Origin: an uncultured Caldisericota bacterium
GTDB taxonomy: Bacteria > Caldisericota > Caldisericia > Cryosericales > Cryosericaceae
NCBI GenBank assembly: GCA_964516155.1
Contig: CAZEWU010000002.1
Coordinates: 1-24,442, forward strand
Length of the DNA: 24,442 nucleotides
Direction of reading: 5' to 3'
The translations under genes and the position numbers were made by a program. Positions 17,159 through 24,258 of the stretch are shown piece after piece (the first letter of the stretch is position 1; every line of letters begins with the position of its first letter). The notes beneath the pieces are model-generated. The model saw nothing but the letters and a program-made list of their open reading frames with translations. It was not told the DNA's origin and made no database searches.

Positions 17159-17356
17159 AAACTCTTTCCTTGCACTGACATGACGAAGTACCTGTCAAAC
17201 GCCTGAAGCCAAGTCAGCGAATCACAGAGACAGCGCCCTCCCTGGTTCGCTGCCCACGCCGGTTGCTGTTAAGCTGCATCGTCATCATCTGATTGCAGGA
17301 CGGCCCCCGTTACCAGCGCGCTATCTCTGTGGGCGATACCGGAGACAAGATTCAGA

Positions 17357-17387
17357 AAGGCCGTGACGAAAAAACAGTCACGGCCTT
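17357..17387 (-). terminator. putative terminator hairpin (11-bp stem AAGGCCGTGAC / GTCACGGCCTT, 9-nt loop) about 65 nt downstream of dfx; the trailing U-tract is weak
   Basis: Perfect stem read from the sequence. On the minus strand it is followed by TCTGAATCTTG. Confidence 0.4.
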
Positions 17388-17451
17388 CTGCCGACGATCT
17401 GCCAGGGAGAAGAATGTTATATCTTCATCCTCCTCGTTACCCAGTCGTTAT

Positions 17452-17826
17452 CTAAAAGTCAGCCTTCCAGAGGCCATGGATATTGCAGTAAGCGTACACG
17501 GTGCCGGAAACGGCCTCGGCAAATTCTGCTCCGGGTTCCATACCGGGCGTCAGGAATACGATGTCAACCTTGTTGCCGGTCACAAGAGCGATCCACTCGA
17601 TATGATGCTCCGGCAGCATGGGGTGCGGCGTCGATCCAACCACGACCTTGATCTTGCCATTCTCTCTGGTGATGACCGGGACGTGTTTTTCCCGTGAGGC
17701 ATCGGTCGAATTCGCCTTAAGCTCCGTCATCGCCTGACCGCAGCAGGTCAGCGTTCCGCCGCCCTTTTTGAGCAGGGCCACCATATTGCCGCACTTCTCA
17801 CAACGATAAAAAGCGATATCAGACAT
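17452..17826 (-). CDS. dfx: desulfoferrodoxin (2Fe superoxide reductase, Dfx)
   Basis: N-terminal desulforedoxin domain 'YRCEKCGNMV...LTCCG' and a C-terminal neelaredoxin domain with 'HHIEWI' and 'CNIHGLW'. AGGAGG lies 8 nt upstream of ATG 17826 ('MSDIAFY...'). Confidence 0.9.
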   Translation of the reverse strand: MSDIAFYRCEKCGNMVALLKKGGGTLTCCGQAMTELKANSTDASREKHVPVITRENGKIKVVVGSTPHPMLPEHHIEWIALVTGNKVDIVFLTPGMEPGAEFAEAVSGTVYAYCNIHGLWKADF

Positions 17827-17893
17827 CTTTGTACCTCCTCTGTCAAAAATCATCAAACATCAGTATAACCAGCGTTACGCGACATCATGATCT

Positions 17894-18709
17894 TCATGCA
17901 AAGACAACAATGGCCTGTCTGCGTTTGATGCGGAGCAGAACAGTCTCAAGCACACGCAGACTATAGTTCAGATTTTTCTGTTCCAGGTAGGCGGTTGTGA
18001 TGTCCTGTCCGATCACCAGGTCCATATTTCTCGAATCGGAACAGACAAGGACGGCCTTTCCCTTGCCCAGCACCGGCGTCCTGAAAACATGTCCGTCCAG
18101 CAGCTTGTTCACCCGGTCGATCTCCAGCAGACCGGTTCCCTGCTGTATCCGCTGCATCTGCATATACAGGTCCGGACTGACGGAAAGAGCATACGTCCCG
18201 TAAATGCTTTTCCCCGCCAGCAGTTCGATCGCAGAAGCGATATCGGTGAAGGCATTCTCCCCGGATGCCCAATCTTTTCTGGTGATCTTGCCGGTCCCGG
18301 ACGCCGTCAACAGACCTTCATAGCCGAGTCTCGCGTTTCCCGAATAGATCAGCTTGTCTTCGTTGAGCGCGCATGTTTCCGCCGAAGCCATCACTTTTGA
18401 AAGGTCCACAGGATACCCTGACTGTCTGCTGTTTTCAAGGTCCCGTGCCAGCAGCGTAACATCATCGTAAATGATCGGTATCTCTGCAAGCTTCCGGCCT
18501 CTGGTCGTGATGACGCCGTCTTTTGCAGCCTCGTCAACAGCATCGCTGTCATCGATCTGGACGCTTTCCACTCCGACGCCCAGCGGCCCGAAAATGTGCA
18601 GAAAACGCCGGCCGGACAGGACATTGCGAGCCGTCTCCGTCACAGCGGAATCGATCTGTCTCCACAGCTCCGCAGGTATTGAAGAGGATTCTCTGGATAA
18701 ATAACTCAT
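17894..18709 (-). CDS. family 1 encapsulin nanocompartment shell protein (HK97 fold, Linocin_M18/CFP29 family)
   Basis: The 271-aa protein aligns end-to-end by eye with T. maritima encapsulin: N-terminal 'ELWRQIDSAVTETARNVLSGRRFL..FGPLG', C-terminal 'LVIGQDITTAYLEQKNLNYSLRVLETVLLRI' versus '[31 protein letters not shown]'. RBS GGTGGAGG precedes the start. Confidence 0.85.
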   Translation of the reverse strand: MSYLSRESSSIPAELWRQIDSAVTETARNVLSGRRFLHIFGPLGVGVESVQIDDSDAVDEAAKDGVITTRGRKLAEIPIIYDDVTLLARDLENSRQSGYPVDLSKVMASAETCALNEDKLIYSGNARLGYEGLLTASGTGKITRKDWASGENAFTDIASAIELLAGKSIYGTYALSVSPDLYMQMQRIQQGTGLLEIDRVNKLLDGHVFRTPVLGKGKAVLVCSDSRNMDLVIGQDITTAYLEQKNLNYSLRVLETVLLRIKRRQAIVVFA

Positions 18710-18727
18710 ATCTGTGCCTCCACCAGA

Positions 18728-19108
18728 CTACGCTTCTTTATCGCTGATCATACTGCCCACAGTCTCCGGGCCGGCAACATCCGATTTCTGCTCCGCCGGA
18801 GGTTCCGTTCCTCCCGGCTCGTTAAGCATGGTCCTGACTTCCTCTTCACCGGAAGCAAACAGTTCGGCTTCTCTGGGGTCCAGTGCGGTAAGCAGGGTCA
18901 TCAATTCCCCGACGTGGGCCTTTTCTTCGTCACGGATATCAGCAAGGACCTTTTTTGCCATTTCATTGTCCGTGGCCTGAACATGTGCGTCATAGAGGTA
19001 GATAGCTTCCAGTTCACCCGCGATATCCAGACGGACCGCCTGGATCAGTTCCTTCTTCGTCAACTGTCGGTTGACATTGCCTTGGAAAGGATTTGCAAAA
19101 GCTGGCAT
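18728..19108 (-). CDS. encapsulated ferritin-like protein (EncFtn/Flp) cargo with a C-terminal targeting-peptide-like tail
   Basis: Di-iron ligand pattern 'GELEAIYLY ... DEEKAHVGEL' (E...ExxH). A Gly/Pro/Glu-rich linker is followed by a C-terminal 'ETVGSMISDKEA' resembling the TVGSLI-type encapsulin cargo-loading peptide. AGGAGG precedes the start, and the gene lies 18 nt upstream of the encapsulin gene. Confidence 0.8.
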   Translation of the reverse strand: MPAFANPFQGNVNRQLTKKELIQAVRLDIAGELEAIYLYDAHVQATDNEMAKKVLADIRDEEKAHVGELMTLLTALDPREAELFASGEEEVRTMLNEPGGTEPPAEQKSDVAGPETVGSMISDKEA

Positions 19109-19313
19109 CTCTTCAACCTCCTTTTACTGCTCTTGATAAAGAGACTATTTCCAGAATGTCTCTCGCCTCTCAATGAGAGCCGGCTCTGTTCTTCAGACCG
19201 CCGTCACACTCATCGATACGCTGTCAGCAAGCGGTGACAGAAATTCGTGGAGGAAGTGTCCACGCAATGTTCCATGGACCTCCAGATTATGTTTCAACTC
19301 CTTATCTATATGT

Positions 19314-19342
19314 ATTTTACATTATTCATACATTTAAATCAA
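19314..19342 (-). promoter_or_regulatory. sigma-70-type promoter for the EncFtn-encapsulin-dfx operon: -35 TTGATT, 17-nt spacer, -10 TAAAAT (minus strand)
   Basis: Near-consensus hexamers with ideal spacing. The predicted transcription start gives a ~200-nt leader, which contains an ATGTAT-N12-ATACAT inverted repeat across the -10 and two more inverted repeats downstream. Confidence 0.55.
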
Positions 19343-19396
19343 CACTGAAACCGCACTTTTCCGGAAGCGACGGACATCAGTCCGGGGTTTCCCGGA

Positions 19397-19615
19397 TTAC
19401 TTCTCTTTCTCATACGCCAGGAGATCGCCCGGCTGGCAGTCCAGCGCCCTGCAGATCTTCTCCAGCGTCTCTAACCGTATGGCGCGCGCCTTCCCGTTCT
19501 TGAGGATGGAGATGTTCGCCATGGTGATCCCCACTTTCTCCGACAGTTCGGTAACACTCATCTTTCGTTTTGCCATCATGACATCCAGCGTCACATTGAT
19601 CGCCACAGGGATCAC
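19397..19615 (-). CDS. XRE/Cro-C1-family HTH transcriptional regulator, YozG-like
   Basis: 'DVMMAKRKMSVTELSEKVGITMANISILKNGKARAIRLETLEKICRALDCQPGDLLAYE' is the stereotyped YozG-type sequence. GTG start 19615 overlaps the stop of the upstream DUF2975 gene (translational coupling). Confidence 0.85.
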   Translation of the reverse strand: MIPVAINVTLDVMMAKRKMSVTELSEKVGITMANISILKNGKARAIRLETLEKICRALDCQPGDLLAYEKEK

Positions 19616-19616
19616 C

Positions 19617-20096
19617 TCAGATCGTCAGATCGTTGTCTGTTTTCAACGCATATCCCTTCTCCACCCAATGCGACAGCACCGCTGCAACGAGGGAGACCCC
19701 CAGTCCTCCGACCTCGAGGAAAAAGCAGGCGATCAGAAGCCCGGGGTGCAGCCTGTTGGAAAAGAAGAAGACGTTACTCACCACAAAGCACAGCACCGTG
19801 TCGGACAGCGCAAGCCAGCTGATAGACTGCAGGGACCGCGAGACAGGACGGGAGAACGAGCGGTCCCTGCCGATCTCGCAGCAGATCTTCCAGAGATTCC
19901 CCAGGGCCAGGTAACAGGGAACCGCGGCAATCCAGATCCAGATCACATAGGACCGGAACAGGTAAGCAAGGTCAGGAAAAGACCGTCCGAAATCCCTGCC
20001 CATGCCGGGGATGATATAAAAGAAGAAAGCGGTTGCCAGCGCCGTTACCAGAACTGTGATGCATTTCAGCCATCGCGCCAGTTGCGACTGTTTCAT
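19617..20096 (-). CDS. DUF2975-family small membrane protein (partner of YozG-like regulators)
   Basis: A ~160-aa protein with 4 hydrophobic segments, immediately upstream of and coupled to the YozG-like gene, as in the widespread DUF2975-HTH pairs. AAGGAGGTG precedes ATG 20096. Confidence 0.65.
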   Translation of the reverse strand: MKQSQLARWLKCITVLVTALATAFFFYIIPGMGRDFGRSFPDLAYLFRSYVIWIWIAAVPCYLALGNLWKICCEIGRDRSFSRPVSRSLQSISWLALSDTVLCFVVSNVFFFSNRLHPGLLIACFFLEVGGLGVSLVAAVLSHWVEKGYALKTDNDLTI

Positions 20097-20403
20097 AGAG
20101 CACACCTCCTTGTGGGTCGTGTGTTCTCACTATATCGGTATATTATCGTTTTTCAATATGTATTTATTGTATGTCGATATTCCAGCAGTGCCTCAGCCTC
20201 TGTCGCACATGTATTCCAAAGACCACTGTCAGAGCAGAGAGATCATCTGATGCGGGATGTGTCCAGTCGGAAGGGTATGGACACCCCTCATCTCTCAGGC
20301 GAGAGTGCGACCGGGGACGACCCTGCGTCAACATTCGACATCTGCACCCGCCGGCATCTGCCGATTGCTCTCATCAGGAACCTTCTATGAAAAGAGGCCG
20401 TAC

Positions 20404-20458: not shown

Positions 20459-21130
20459 CTAGGCCAGGTATTCCCTCAATTCCCTGCAGTTCTCCGCATA
20501 GGTGTGACCGGGACGGAACGCCGTCTTGGTCCCCAGCACCAGGATGTCGGCTCCCTGTTTGACGACCTGACGTGCATCATTAAACGTAAGGCTCCCGTCC
20601 ACCTCTATCGAGACATCCTGTCTTCCATGCTCGTCCAGCATCTTGCGTGTTCTGGCGATCTTGTCCAGGATCTGACTGTCAAGTTCCGGTTCCGGTACAG
20701 TGAAATTGCGTATCATCAGATTTACCATGTCGACATACGGGATCAACTCCTCCAGCACACTGAGGGGAGTGCCTGGATTCAACGTCACTGCCGGCCTGCC
20801 ACCAGCGTTCCGCACCCTTTTGAGAAGAGATGTGATCTGCATGGTCGTCTCTATCTGGATATCGATGCAGGAATTCTTGCAGTATGGCAAGAAAGCATCC
20901 AGGAGATGAGCAGGCCTTCCGACTGAAATATGAATGTCCAGCGGAATAGCCGTAGCCGCGCAGATGGCGGGAATCAGTTTCGGCGACATCAGGATTGTCT
21001 CGCCATAACTTGTATCCAGGATATCGATATGAAGCAGGTCAACCTTCGCTTCTTCCAGCTTCCCGAGCTCGGATCCCAACGCCAGCCAGTCTGCGCGTTC
21101 AATAGAAGGAGCTAGTCTGATCTTAAGCAT
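20459..21130 (-). CDS. ribulose-phosphate 3-epimerase family protein (Rpe / allulose-6-phosphate 3-epimerase-like TIM barrel)
   Basis: 'MLKIRLAPSIERADWLALGSELGKLEEAKVDLLHIDILD' matches the Rpe N-terminus, with His/Asp metal-ligand spacing. The track ORF begins 51 codons upstream and out of context. Confidence 0.8.
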   Translation of the reverse strand: MLKIRLAPSIERADWLALGSELGKLEEAKVDLLHIDILDTSYGETILMSPKLIPAICAATAIPLDIHISVGRPAHLLDAFLPYCKNSCIDIQIETTMQITSLLKRVRNAGGRPAVTLNPGTPLSVLEELIPYVDMVNLMIRNFTVPEPELDSQILDKIARTRKMLDEHGRQDVSIEVDGSLTFNDARQVVKQGADILVLGTKTAFRPGHTYAENCRELREYLA

Positions 21131-21149
21131 ATTCTCTTCACCATCCCCG

Positions 21150-21366
21150 CTAGTGCAGGTATGCACGCAGCGCGTTGCAGCGTTCCACGACGGAAACACC
21201 AGGCTGATAGATGCTTTTTGTCCCCAGGACAAACACGCTGGCACCCGCCTCTTGCGTGCGGCGAGCCACGTCAAACGAAACACCGCCGTCTACTTCGATC
21301 GGAACATCCTGCCTTCCGTGCTCATCCAGCATCTTCCGTGCCCGTGCCACCTTGGTCAGCAGCTGG
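21150..21366 (-). pseudogene. truncated paralog remnant: C-terminal ~70 codons of a second rpe-family gene, with its own stop, directly upstream of the intact copy
   Basis: The encoded 'SQLLTKVARARKMLDEHGRQDVPIEVDGGVSF...VLGTK' is about 65% identical to 'SQILDKIARTRKMLDEHGRQDVSIEVDGSLTF...VLGTK' of the intact gene. DNA similarity ends abruptly at about 21366, in a TATAAT that carries an in-frame TAA. Confidence 0.6.
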
Positions 21367-21561: not shown

Positions 21562-24258
21562 TTACCGTCCGGTATTGACGGCGGCCGGTGCAGCGGCGGG
21601 ATCGGAGAAGCTGCCGATGCGAAGAACTCCGTTCTCCTCAAGGAAGGACAGGGTCTGATCGTAACGGCCGGCCGGACCATCGGAGGTAGCATATGTATAG
21701 GTCACGACCGCATTATCCCCGTCCAGACGGACTTCGTAACGCTGGACCCATGGGCTTGACTGTCCCGTTACCCAGTGTTCTTCTCTGTAGGAAGCATACA
21801 CTGCTGCCTGAAGTTGCGTGCTGAGCAGATCGTACTGCGCCTTTCCGTTGCGTGTCCTGACCGCTTCAGCCCACTGTGCAGCGAGAGCCTTCCGCCGTGC
21901 CTGCGCAGTCGTACCGACGCCGCTTCCGGTCGGATGCCGGAACGCGGAGGGGTAAGTCGCAATGTCGGGAAGAAAAGCTTCATCATAAACACCGCTGTCC
22001 ATCCCGTTCCCGACCGCCAGGACGGAACTGCCGTCATATTGCAGCGTGACATAATGATTCAGGCCCTGCGGCGTCTGATAGTTGATGTTGATCACATGAT
22101 TTGCGCGGTAGATGATACCCGTCAACGTACTGCCGTCAGCAGTGATCTTGCTCAGGACACTGTCGGCGCCCTTGAATTCAAGGAGCTGCTCCCTCGTGAT
22201 CATGATGCCGCCGTATTCGCGGAAACCGTTATCCCAGTACAGCCAGTACGGTTTCACGGTGCGACCGGTCCCATCTGAAACGGCATCGAACGTATTCTGC
22301 TGGACCGTGAACGTGCCGTCATCCAGCTGCTCCAGGTCCTGGACCCTGCCGGAAAGAAGGGTCGCGTATGCTCTGCTGTTCTTGACACCAAAGACCAGCG
22401 TCGTGCCGCCCGTTGTATAGACTTCTTCGATCTTGAAGAACTCACTGTTGCCGGCATAAAAAACAGGCTTCGGCGAAAGAGAGAAGACATCCGTCGTTTT
22501 CAGGCTTGTCAGTCCCTTCTTCGAGACGAACCACAATTCGCCGGTGTAGAAATCTTCGCTCTCATCCACCTTCTTCCCGACCAGAGCGAACGCTTCATAG
22601 CTGCCGTCGCCGTCATAATCGTCAAGATCAAAGCTGATGATCCTCTCGCCCGTTTTCAGGGGAAGCTGCCGTGACAGCCGATCCTTCGCTTCCGCTTCGG
22701 CCTGTCTTTCTGCCGCCGGTCTGAACACGTCATACGCCTGGAAACTGTGGTCCTGCGTATTCTCCACGATCAGCTTCAGGTCCCCTACAACGTCGTCGGC
22801 GTCCCACAGATAAGCGTAGGTCTTTTCATCGATCTGCCCATACGTGGCACTCGGCGCGCCCTCTCCCTCCTGCATCAGATTGATGTCCGCCGCCTTGTCG
22901 GCGATGTCGCCCGGAACATACGGATCGGCGATCTTCTGCGCTTTCACCGTAGACAACCTGTCTGCATCGATGTCGTACCGGTACATGACGTCGTCGGCAC
23001 CCTCGCCCAGGTTATCGATATAAACTGTCTTGCCATCCTTCGTGACGGTCACCTGCGTATACGTCGACCCCTGGATGTGGGCGCTGTCGATCTTCTGAAG
23101 GTCGATGCTCCGGTACAGCTGCCCATGCCCGGCTGTGTCGTAGACAAACAGCCCGAAGTAACCGTGGAAGATGACACGCGTCCCGGAGGCATAATCGATG
23201 TCCGGCTCCGCCACGCCCGTATTCATTGTCCTGAATCTGGACGTATCGACCGCACCGGCCGCTCTGTCGTACGTTATGGCGGTTCCCAGGATGCCGGCGA
23301 TCACGATAACGGCGCACAGGGCAAGCGCCCCTCTGCGTTTTCTGCTCATGTCAAAAATGTTCACCAGCCGTTCCCTCATTACTTTCTTCCCCCCATCAAA
23401 ATACGTCGAAAACACCGTCCGGCGTCCTCTTCCCTTGCGGACCGCCGTCAGGATCGCCTCGCTGTACTGTCTCCGGAACAGAACATCTGCGTTCCGGGTC
23501 ACTGAGGAGTCGCAGGACATCTCAAGGTCCCGGTCCGATGCCGCCGCCATGAAGCAGACAAGCGGGTTGAACCAGTGCACGGCGTTGGCACAGACCATCA
23601 GCAGCTTGTACCAGATGTCTCCGCATTTGACATGCACGAGCTCATGCTTCAGGACCATCGCAAGATCACCGTCCCGGAAGTCCAGGTCCGGCAGCAGCAG
23701 GACGGGCCGGAAGAAACCCGTCGTCATGGGGCTCTGCACCTTTTTGCAGGACAGCAGCCGGACAGGACGAACGACATGCATCTCCCCGCGCACAGCATTC
23801 CAGATCGCCAGGATCCTTTCATCCTCTACGGGCCGGGAAAAACGCCGCACCACCCTCCGGAAAAGGAGGTACCCTGTGAAATGGTACAGCAGGAACGCCA
23901 CCGCGCCCAGGATCCACACAAGAGAGAGGACCGTCATAAGCGGTATCGCTGTCCGTGTCGGGGGAACAGCTGTCGCCGGAGAACTTGCCGGACTTCCCGT
24001 CTGCAAAGGAAGCGTCGTTTTCCGGGCCGGGGCGGTCACCGTTATCTGCCGTGCCGGCGCTGCAAGCCGGATCGGCGCCTGCGGCAGAGACGGGTTCCAC
24101 GGGATCAGCAACCGTACCGCCACCAGAAGCCAGACCCAGGAACGCCACCGTGCCGTGTAACGTCGGCGCAGCAACGGCAGCAGAAGCAACAGCACGGCAA
24201 TGACAGCCGACATGATCAGGGTGACTTCGATAACGTTGCTGAAGATGCGCTGCAGCAT
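21562..24258 (-). CDS. BlaR1/MecR1-family M56 zinc-metalloprotease signal transducer with a large (~570 aa) C-terminal extracytoplasmic domain of unknown type
   Basis: N-terminal polytopic region with 'HELVHVKCGDIWYKLL' (HExxH) and the downstream 'VHWFNPLV' typical of peptidase M56. There is a further TM segment at about aa 313-335. The remaining domain lacks the SxxK/STFK motif of PBP-like sensors. Confidence 0.8.
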   Translation of the reverse strand: MLQRIFSNVIEVTLIMSAVIAVLLLLLPLLRRRYTARWRSWVWLLVAVRLLIPWNPSLPQAPIRLAAPARQITVTAPARKTTLPLQTGSPASSPATAVPPTRTAIPLMTVLSLVWILGAVAFLLYHFTGYLLFRRVVRRFSRPVEDERILAIWNAVRGEMHVVRPVRLLSCKKVQSPMTTGFFRPVLLLPDLDFRDGDLAMVLKHELVHVKCGDIWYKLLMVCANAVHWFNPLVCFMAAASDRDLEMSCDSSVTRNADVLFRRQYSEAILTAVRKGRGRRTVFSTYFDGGKKVMRERLVNIFDMSRKRRGALALCAVIVIAGILGTAITYDRAAGAVDTSRFRTMNTGVAEPDIDYASGTRVIFHGYFGLFVYDTAGHGQLYRSIDLQKIDSAHIQGSTYTQVTVTKDGKTVYIDNLGEGADDVMYRYDIDADRLSTVKAQKIADPYVPGDIADKAADINLMQEGEGAPSATYGQIDEKTYAYLWDADDVVGDLKLIVENTQDHSFQAYDVFRPAAERQAEAEAKDRLSRQLPLKTGERIISFDLDDYDGDGSYEAFALVGKKVDESEDFYTGELWFVSKKGLTSLKTTDVFSLSPKPVFYAGNSEFFKIEEVYTTGGTTLVFGVKNSRAYATLLSGRVQDLEQLDDGTFTVQQNTFDAVSDGTGRTVKPYWLYWDNGFREYGGIMITREQLLEFKGADSVLSKITADGSTLTGIIYRANHVININYQTPQGLNHYVTLQYDGSSVLAVGNGMDSGVYDEAFLPDIATYPSAFRHPTGSGVGTTAQARRKALAAQWAEAVRTRNGKAQYDLLSTQLQAAVYASYREEHWVTGQSSPWVQRYEVRLDGDNAVVTYTYATSDGPAGRYDQTLSFLEENGVLRIGSFSDPAAAPAAVNTGR

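Follow-up and report, generated by a model that had tools for sequence, protein, structure and literature searches.

Here we present an analysis of a 24,442-nucleotide stretch of DNA from an uncultured Caldisericota bacterium (contig CAZEWU010000002.1 of assembly GCA_964516155.1; hereafter the window), centred on the C-terminal segment of an encapsulated ferritin-like cargo protein, EncFtn, encoded on the minus strand (18728..19108; 126 amino acids with a TAG stop at 18728-18730). Judging from sequence comparisons, this segment very probably belongs to the TVGSL subclass of family 1 encapsulin targeting peptides (cargo-loading peptides), its core being T116-V-G-S-M-I121. Such a tag separates packaged from free ferroxidases, and thereby sets the functional reading of a three-gene cluster in which EncFtn is followed by the gene for a family 1 encapsulin shell protein (17894..18709, minus strand; 271 amino acids; the presumed receptor of the tail) and, third in order, by a desulfoferrodoxin gene (superoxide reductase, Dfx; 17452..17826, minus strand; Pfam Desulfoferrod_N and Desulfoferrodox). 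In this reading the cluster would encode an encapsulin nanocompartment for the sequestration of iron, accompanied by a superoxide reductase that carries no tag.

The preliminary description of this DNA had proposed a cargo-loading-peptide-like tail on EncFtn at 18731-18769, and translation bears this out, the reverse complement of these positions (CCG GAG ACT GTG GGC AGT ATG ATC AGC GAT AAA GAA GCG) encoding residues P114 to A126 (PETVGSMISDKEA) directly before the TAG stop. Three parts of the protein can be distinguished upstream of its last few residues, all on the minus strand: a folded helical domain (approximately residues 11-96; 18821..19078), delimited by the AlphaFold2 model and by low column entropy in 121 sequences; a flexible linker (residues 97-115, EPGGTEPPAEQKSDVAGPE; 18764..18820), recognized by its entropy, model confidence and variable length; and the targeting-peptide core itself (T116-V117-G118-S119-M120-I121; 18746..18763), recognized by conservation and by its match to solved peptides. 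The post-motif residues S122-D-K-E-A126 (18731..18745) correspond to a region variable in both length and sequence among homologues. In the AlphaFold2 model, built with 47 aligned homologues, helices span residues 18-45, 49-76 and 78-96, with block means of the predicted local distance difference test (pLDDT) of 83-98 over residues 11-90 and 64 over residues 91-100. Values fall below 50 for residues 99-113, which agrees with the earlier impression of a Gly/Pro/Glu-rich, disordered-looking linker (NEPGGTEPPAEQKSDVAGP, residues 96-114), and again for residues 124-126, while block means of 55 and 52 over residues 111-126 accompany a short predicted helix at 117-124. A predicted profile of this kind is typical of disordered tethers with a short terminal binding motif.

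Conservation across the family sets the motif sharply apart from its surroundings. A protein search with EncFtn returned 1,471 homologues, of which the best 120 (69-99% identity) were analysed, giving 121 sequences with that of the window. With one truncated exception, these 120 homologues end in a variable linker, T-V/I-G-S-L-L/I and then one to seven further residues; the window protein, in which the motif forms residues 116-121 of 126 and is followed by five residues and the stop, shows a like placement. Across linker positions 101-115, columns have entropies of 2.4-3.2 bits (except for a partly conserved Pro 103 at 1.8 bits); entropy then drops to 0.29, 0.59, 0.00, 0.29, 0.37 and 1.18 bits at positions 116-121, and rises again to 1.5-3.0 bits after the motif. 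The underlying residue counts among the 120 homologues (T 114, V 105, G 120, S 114, L 113 with M in 5, and L/I 117) yield a clade consensus of T-V-G-S-L-[LI] with an invariant G, set behind a linker that is rich in Pro, Gly, Glu and Ala and differs in length among homologues.

Presence of the motif also goes with that of the shell gene. A genome scan, restricted to one genome per species, recovered 367 relatives, and the best 80 loci (at least 67% identity) were analysed. A shell gene with 43-73% identity to that of the window lies 11-120 nucleotides after the EncFtn stop in 78/80 of these loci; at L073 only a partial shell match was found, hence its spacing is not measurable. Every one of the 78 shell-paired EncFtn genes carries the motif or a conservative variant of it (TLGSLL, TVGGLL, TIGSLM or TVGSML), and a tail-less orthologue still paired with a shell, which the preliminary description had named as a refuting observation, was not seen. 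TVGSMI in its exact form recurs in Lutispora saccharofermentans (L054) and at L073. Six-frame translation of 886 kb of related loci places 75 instances of the motif in EncFtn tails against 7 elsewhere, the latter being about the chance level. The locus of the window itself, with its gene order unchanged, recurs at 99% identity in three metagenome assemblies that are independent of one another.

Conversely, EncFtn homologues without a neighbouring shell gene lack an intact tail in 4/4 cases, a small sample comprising three proteins truncated at residues 98-105 and one with TVGSPL. At L053 (6001-6728) EncFtn ends with ...EELGISFPAK before the tail and Dfx follows directly; at L066 (5871-6167) it ends with ...EMLGDR before the tail and unrelated genes follow; P0097 is a protein of 105 amino acids without a tail, followed by an amine-oxidase-like gene; and P0041 carries the tail TVGSPLKK, in which the anchor Leu is replaced by Pro, and adjoins a short-chain dehydrogenase and a transposase. 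These shell-less homologues may be shell-independent ferroxidases or decaying genes. A 43-amino-acid open reading frame after the P0041 gene was considered as a shell remnant and rejected, its sequence being unlike a shell N-terminus. P0097 and P0041 came from the protein search and were traced to contigs; their free-standing genes are those at L081 (4001-4318) and L082 (224-616).

Both partners were assigned by profile searches. The EncFtn open reading frame matches NCBIfam EncB_fam NF058679 ('encapsulin nanocompartment ferritin-like cargo protein') over the whole profile (1-117 of 117; E 1.2e-48; 164 bits, cut-off 90), a model that already covers the tail, and scores 27.3 against Pfam EncFtn-like PF22277 (threshold 27) and 97.5 against TIGR04535, below its cut-off of 125. 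Its closest solved structures are Myxococcus xanthus EncC (7s8t, 1.3e-17) and Pyrococcus furiosus EncFtn (5n5e); a phmmer search of the 31-residue tail by itself against PDB chains gave no match, the tail being too short and its complexity too low. Residues E32, Y39, E62 and H65 (ExxH motif), which form the ferroxidase centre in Rhodospirillum rubrum numbering, are present and invariant in the 47-homologue alignment, and the cargo is therefore probably catalytically competent. The shell protein matches the NCBIfam equivalog encap_f1 NF041155 over its full profile (1-261 of 261; 283.9 bits, cut-off 100) and Pfam Linocin_M18 PF04454 (1.1e-69), and its gene is intact and full length. The closest solved shells are those of M. 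xanthus (EncA, 4pt2/7s20; T=3, ~6e-54) and Quasibacillus thermotolerans (6nj8; T=4, 3e-46), while T=1 shells match far worse (~1e-11 to 1e-16). Many EncFtn homologues bear database names such as 'demethoxyubiquinone hydroxylase family protein', 'ubiquinone biosynthesis protein COQ7' or 'rubrerythrin'; the targeting tail and the neighbouring shell gene together mark this COQ7/rubrerythrin naming as a systematic misannotation and serve to correct it.

Further evidence comes from the shell residues expected to face the peptide. In the 2.5 Å map of the M. xanthus system, the segment EKRLTVGSLR was resolved; its L, V and L occupy pockets P1-P3, and it makes hydrogen-bond or ionic contacts to shell residues R28, R34, D38, D213 and D243 (PMC10402063), and in the Klebsiella pneumoniae shell Arg34 and Asp229 hydrogen-bond the peptide backbone (PMC10960027). 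We aligned 73 clade shells with that of the window and with M. xanthus EncA, for which PDB numbering equals the numbering of the paper plus one. R34, equivalent to M. xanthus R34 (codon 18608..18610, minus strand, in the N-terminal helix of the putative peptide-binding cleft), and D236, which aligns with M. xanthus D243 (codon 18002..18004, minus strand, P-domain), are invariant in 74/74 shells and are among 33 invariant positions of 271, while position 28 is R or K in 65/74. Position 38 (codon 18596..18598, minus strand) is His in 60/74 clade shells, including that of the window, and never the Asp that forms a salt bridge in the M. xanthus and K. pneumoniae shells, where in solved complexes Asp38 pairs with the terminal Lys or Arg of the peptide (PMC10402063, PMC10960027). 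The peptides of the clade differ in the same respect: the motif flanks are close to neutral in net charge, no basic residue is conserved after the motif, and in the window SDKEA stands where a basic post-motif residue would be needed for that bridge. In the clade sequences, the residue at shell position 38 showed no pattern of co-variation with the one that follows the motif.

Together these observations suggest a mechanism that follows characterized systems. By homology, EncFtn would fold into a helical ferroxidase domain (approximately residues 11-96) and assemble into ring-shaped decamers, each subunit of which would project a disordered linker, some 20 residues long and with TVGSMI at its end. 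V117 and M120, together with I121, would fill hydrophobic pockets of the shell, G118 and S119 would permit the backbone conformation needed, and the peptide backbone would hydrogen-bond shell residues R34 and D236. The tether would thus keep the ferroxidase inside the compartment, such that Fe(II) could be oxidized and mineralized within the shell, with the untagged Dfx staying outside. The docking geometry, the decamer and the packaging of EncFtn are each inferred here from homology to related systems.

Several points weigh against this assignment. Encapsulation of this protein and of its close relatives is argued from homology, and the 80 loci represent the closest relatives only. The anchor Leu is Met in the window, as in 5/120 homologues, and where the peptides of M. 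xanthus, K. pneumoniae, Haliangium ochraceum and Thermotoga maritima use basic residues for ionic contacts, such residues are here missing or unconserved. On the side of the shell, His stands in place of D38 and Gly (Gly206 in the window shell) in place of D213, two of the three acidic residues that contact the M. xanthus peptide. Finally, in L053, and perhaps in other shell-less cases, tail and shell could have disappeared in a single deletion each, which would then not be independent evidence that one depends on the other. Because D38 and D213 are replaced, the aligned sequences indicate that the binding mode cannot be identical to that of M. xanthus. We read them as consistent with retention of the hydrophobic and backbone core of the interaction and loss of its ionic clamps, an arrangement that would be nearer to the Q. 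thermotolerans peptide. Basic residues after the targeting motif are in any case described as frequent ('often followed by'; PMC10402063), and the Q. thermotolerans TVGSLIQ is also without them, so they are not strictly defining. A more specific proposal, that the clostridial EncFtn-shell clade uses a variant, charge-independent docking with a net-neutral peptide and a conserved His38 in place of Asp38, appears to us unlikely. If true, charge-independent docking could make cargo loading pH- or metal-sensitive, and a Met anchor could add sensitivity to oxidation, in an oxidative-stress operon that often includes an unpackaged Dfx.

The tail could alternatively be a short linear motif with a role other than docking, for example in regulation of the ferroxidase within the decamer, as a protease degron or as a contact for Dfx. 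Its intermediate AlphaFold2 confidence and short helix are seen in many binding motifs, its flanks are without the basic residues typical of characterized peptides, and Dfx co-occurs in about 30 of the 80 loci. However, conservation is equal in the roughly 50 loci without Dfx, the motif is lost or damaged exactly where the shell is missing, including at L053 where Dfx is retained, and structures of two related systems show the same core bound to the shell, leaving such a role with very little probability.

A similarly low likelihood attaches to the possibility that the tail descends from a targeting peptide and has become weakened or non-functional in this organism. Besides the rarity of Met at the anchor, this would draw on residues 98-100, which are PGG in the window protein against L-G-I/L in 112/118 homologues, and on the acidic post-motif extension SDKEA, which is longer than in most relatives. 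Met is, however, a conservative hydrophobic change and a recognized natural variant of the Leu anchor in the EncC-type consensus RLTVGS(N)L(M) (PMC11202242); TVGSMI, as described above, recurs at two further loci, and TVGSML or SVGSML occur at other shell-paired loci. Several shell-paired lineages are likewise without LGI, and the intact, full-length shell gene and the recurrence of the locus in three independent assemblies also speak against it.

Conservation of the tail as a nucleic-acid element acting on the shell gene, through translational coupling, enhancement of its ribosome-binding site or mRNA structure, is yet harder to sustain. The two genes are tightly packed, on the same strand and in the same frame; an 18-nucleotide spacer separates the EncFtn stop from the shell start, and the motif lies only 36-53 nucleotides upstream of the shell start codon. 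Yet the ribosome-binding site of the shell gene, GGAGG (18717..18721, minus strand; read from the sequence, 7 nucleotides upstream of the ATG at 18707-18709), lies within that spacer and outside the coding tail, the distance between EncFtn stop and shell start ranges over 11-120 nucleotides among related loci, and an Rfam scan of 17300-19700 gave no family match. Third codon positions, moreover, are free while the amino acids are fixed: the conserved motif residues draw on every synonymous codon of Thr (four), Val (four), Gly (four) and Leu (six). As synonymous codons vary freely, selection on the motif acts at the protein level rather than on an RNA or DNA signal for the shell gene, and we regard the nucleic-acid explanation as highly improbable. 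The chance that the tail merely resembles a targeting peptide, on an unstructured C-terminus without specific function, is practically negligible: the motif is admittedly short (six residues) and the window copy departs from the consensus in its Met, but the single match to [TS][VIL]G[SG][LM][LIVM] in the six-frame translation of the 24.4-kb window is the one in the EncFtn tail (18746-18763, minus strand), against expectations per window of 0.25 for this pattern and 0.01 for TVGS[LM][LI], a strict match within the last 15 residues of a given protein has a probability of about 2e-6, near-invariance in 120 homologues beside a hypervariable linker and presence in 78/78 shell-paired loci would remain to be explained, and an alignment artefact is excluded by the raw C-termini of the homologues.

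Two additional features of the EncFtn sequences were observed. The codon of the motif Ser119 (18752-18754) is AGT or AGC in 73/73 cases across the 78 related loci and never TCN, and the alternative residue is Gly (GGN) only, one transition from AGY. In addition, the L-G-I/L that comes directly behind the last helix in most homologues (E-[DE]-L-G-I in the consensus) resembles the DLGI core of the T. maritima peptide; the window protein has P-G-G at this position (18809-18817, minus strand), and P-G-G-like loss of LGI is also seen in the shell-paired lineages P0069, P0075, P0112, L050, L067 and L069. The P. furiosus EncFtn, which needs no peptide, has a similar LTGI; this element may cap a helix of the fold or, alternatively, form a second and dispensable site of contact with the shell.

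With regard to Dfx, which scores 140.8 bits with TIGR00320, just under the cut-off of 146.9, the preliminary description had reported no comparable tail at either terminus, and we find the same: the window contains no second match to the motif, and the protein begins MSDIAFYRCEKCGN and ends ...CNIHGLWKADF. No Dfx targeting motif was found in the window or in the related loci scanned, and Dfx is therefore presumably not packaged. The gene lies directly downstream of the shell gene in about 30 of the 80 related loci, forming an EncFtn-shell-Dfx cluster, and no link between encapsulins and desulfoferrodoxin was found in the literature searched. A search for secondary cargo with the same motif in the window and the 886 kb of related loci yielded nothing beyond chance-level internal matches; three apparent 'N-terminal' TIGGLM matches were rejected, being located upstream of the likely start Met.

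Upstream of the cluster, a 288-nucleotide intergenic region (19109-19396) precedes the EncFtn start and contains a promoter-like site, TTGATT-17-TAAAAT, at 19342-19314. An imperfect, AT-rich inverted repeat (19304-19315 / 19328-19339) overlaps this site and might serve a stress or metal regulator as operator. No Rfam family matches the region. Just beyond lies a tight pair comprising a Cro/C1-type HTH_26 gene (19397-19615, minus strand) and a DUF2975 membrane-protein gene (19617-20105, minus strand). Contigs L084 and L085, which are 99% identical, also have the helix-turn-helix gene upstream, but among the 80 related loci it was detected in L053 only, and the pair is therefore probably an unrelated neighbour of the encapsulin cluster. 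Further upstream, a ribulose-phosphate 3-epimerase-family gene (20459-21283, minus strand) adjoins an open reading frame of 66 amino acids (21150-21350, minus strand) whose match to the epimerase Pfam family is confined to the 40 C-terminal positions and which is similar to the C-terminal end of the complete gene; it looks like a tandem-duplicate remnant partly overlapping the 5' end of the longer epimerase-family frame. An 898-amino-acid protein (21562-24258, minus strand) combines an N-terminal BlaR1-type M56 peptidase/sensor domain (E 2.6e-52) with a long C-terminal region without a Pfam match.

Targeting peptides at the C-terminus of EncFtn cargo are among the defining and well-documented features of family 1 encapsulins, and structures of the TVGSL subclass have been solved; what is new here is an uncharacterized member with small variations, namely the Met anchor, the neutral flanks and the shell His38. 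The peptides of T=1 EncFtn systems (R. rubrum / H. ochraceum SLGIGSLK/R; T. maritima GGDLGIRK) and those of DyP cargo (GSLxIGSLK) differ in following another register, with a double GSL motif or DLGI; their terminal Lys or Arg forms a salt bridge with Asp38 (PMC10960027), and their shells are distant from that of the window. The P. furiosus EncFtn-encapsulin fusion (2E0Z, 5N5E) has a very similar EncFtn domain (E 1e-16) and likewise holds a ferroxidase within its shell. There, EncFtn is covalently fused to the shell N-terminus and no targeting peptide is needed (PMC11202242), whereas in the window the two genes are split by the TAG stop and by the 18-nucleotide spacer with its ribosome-binding site.

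Nearer relationships are found with M. xanthus, whose EncC and EncA are the closest solved cargo and shell homologues, and with Q. thermotolerans. The targeting peptides of M. xanthus EncB and EncC bind to EncA (T=3; PDB 7S2T and others), and alignment of the window tail with characterized targeting peptides shows T-V-G-S in common, TVGSMI standing opposite the TVGS-L of both. The window cargo gene adjoins its shell gene, whereas the encapsulin cargo genes of M. xanthus are dispersed in the genome. EncC ends with PEKRLTVGSLRR and EncB with SHPLTVGSLRR (PMC10402063; list in PMC10960027), and the Leu before TVGSL, a third anchor occupying pocket P1, is replaced by Glu115 in the window. The flanking Lys and Arg residues of the M. 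xanthus peptides contact D38, D213 and D243, while the window has net-neutral flanks, and His38 and Gly206 at two of those shell sites, with R34 and D236 conserved.

The Q. thermotolerans IMEF system (shell 6NJ8, T=4), from a Firmicute, likewise has its targeting peptide at the C-terminus of the cargo, and its shell is a close relative of that of the window. IMEF ends with HKKKGFTVGSLIQ; TVGSLIQ was built into luminal shell density, and deletion of the 13 C-terminal residues gave the construct without a targeting peptide (PMC6668986). The core is identical at five of six positions, which supports the likeness to TVGSLI-type peptides drawn in the preliminary description, and in both systems a neutral residue, rather than Arg or Lys, follows the motif. 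Differences are that the IMEF cargo is a four-helix-bundle dimer and not an EncFtn (PMC11202242), that its peptide is preceded by a basic KKK absent from the window, and that its anchor is Leu rather than Met. The nearest solved relatives of the window shell, those of M. xanthus and Q. thermotolerans, both use TVGSL-type peptides; the class of the window peptide thus agrees with the class of its shell, and the tail described here adds a natural TVGSL-type variant, with a Met anchor and neutral flanks, to the catalogue available for the engineering of cargo loading.

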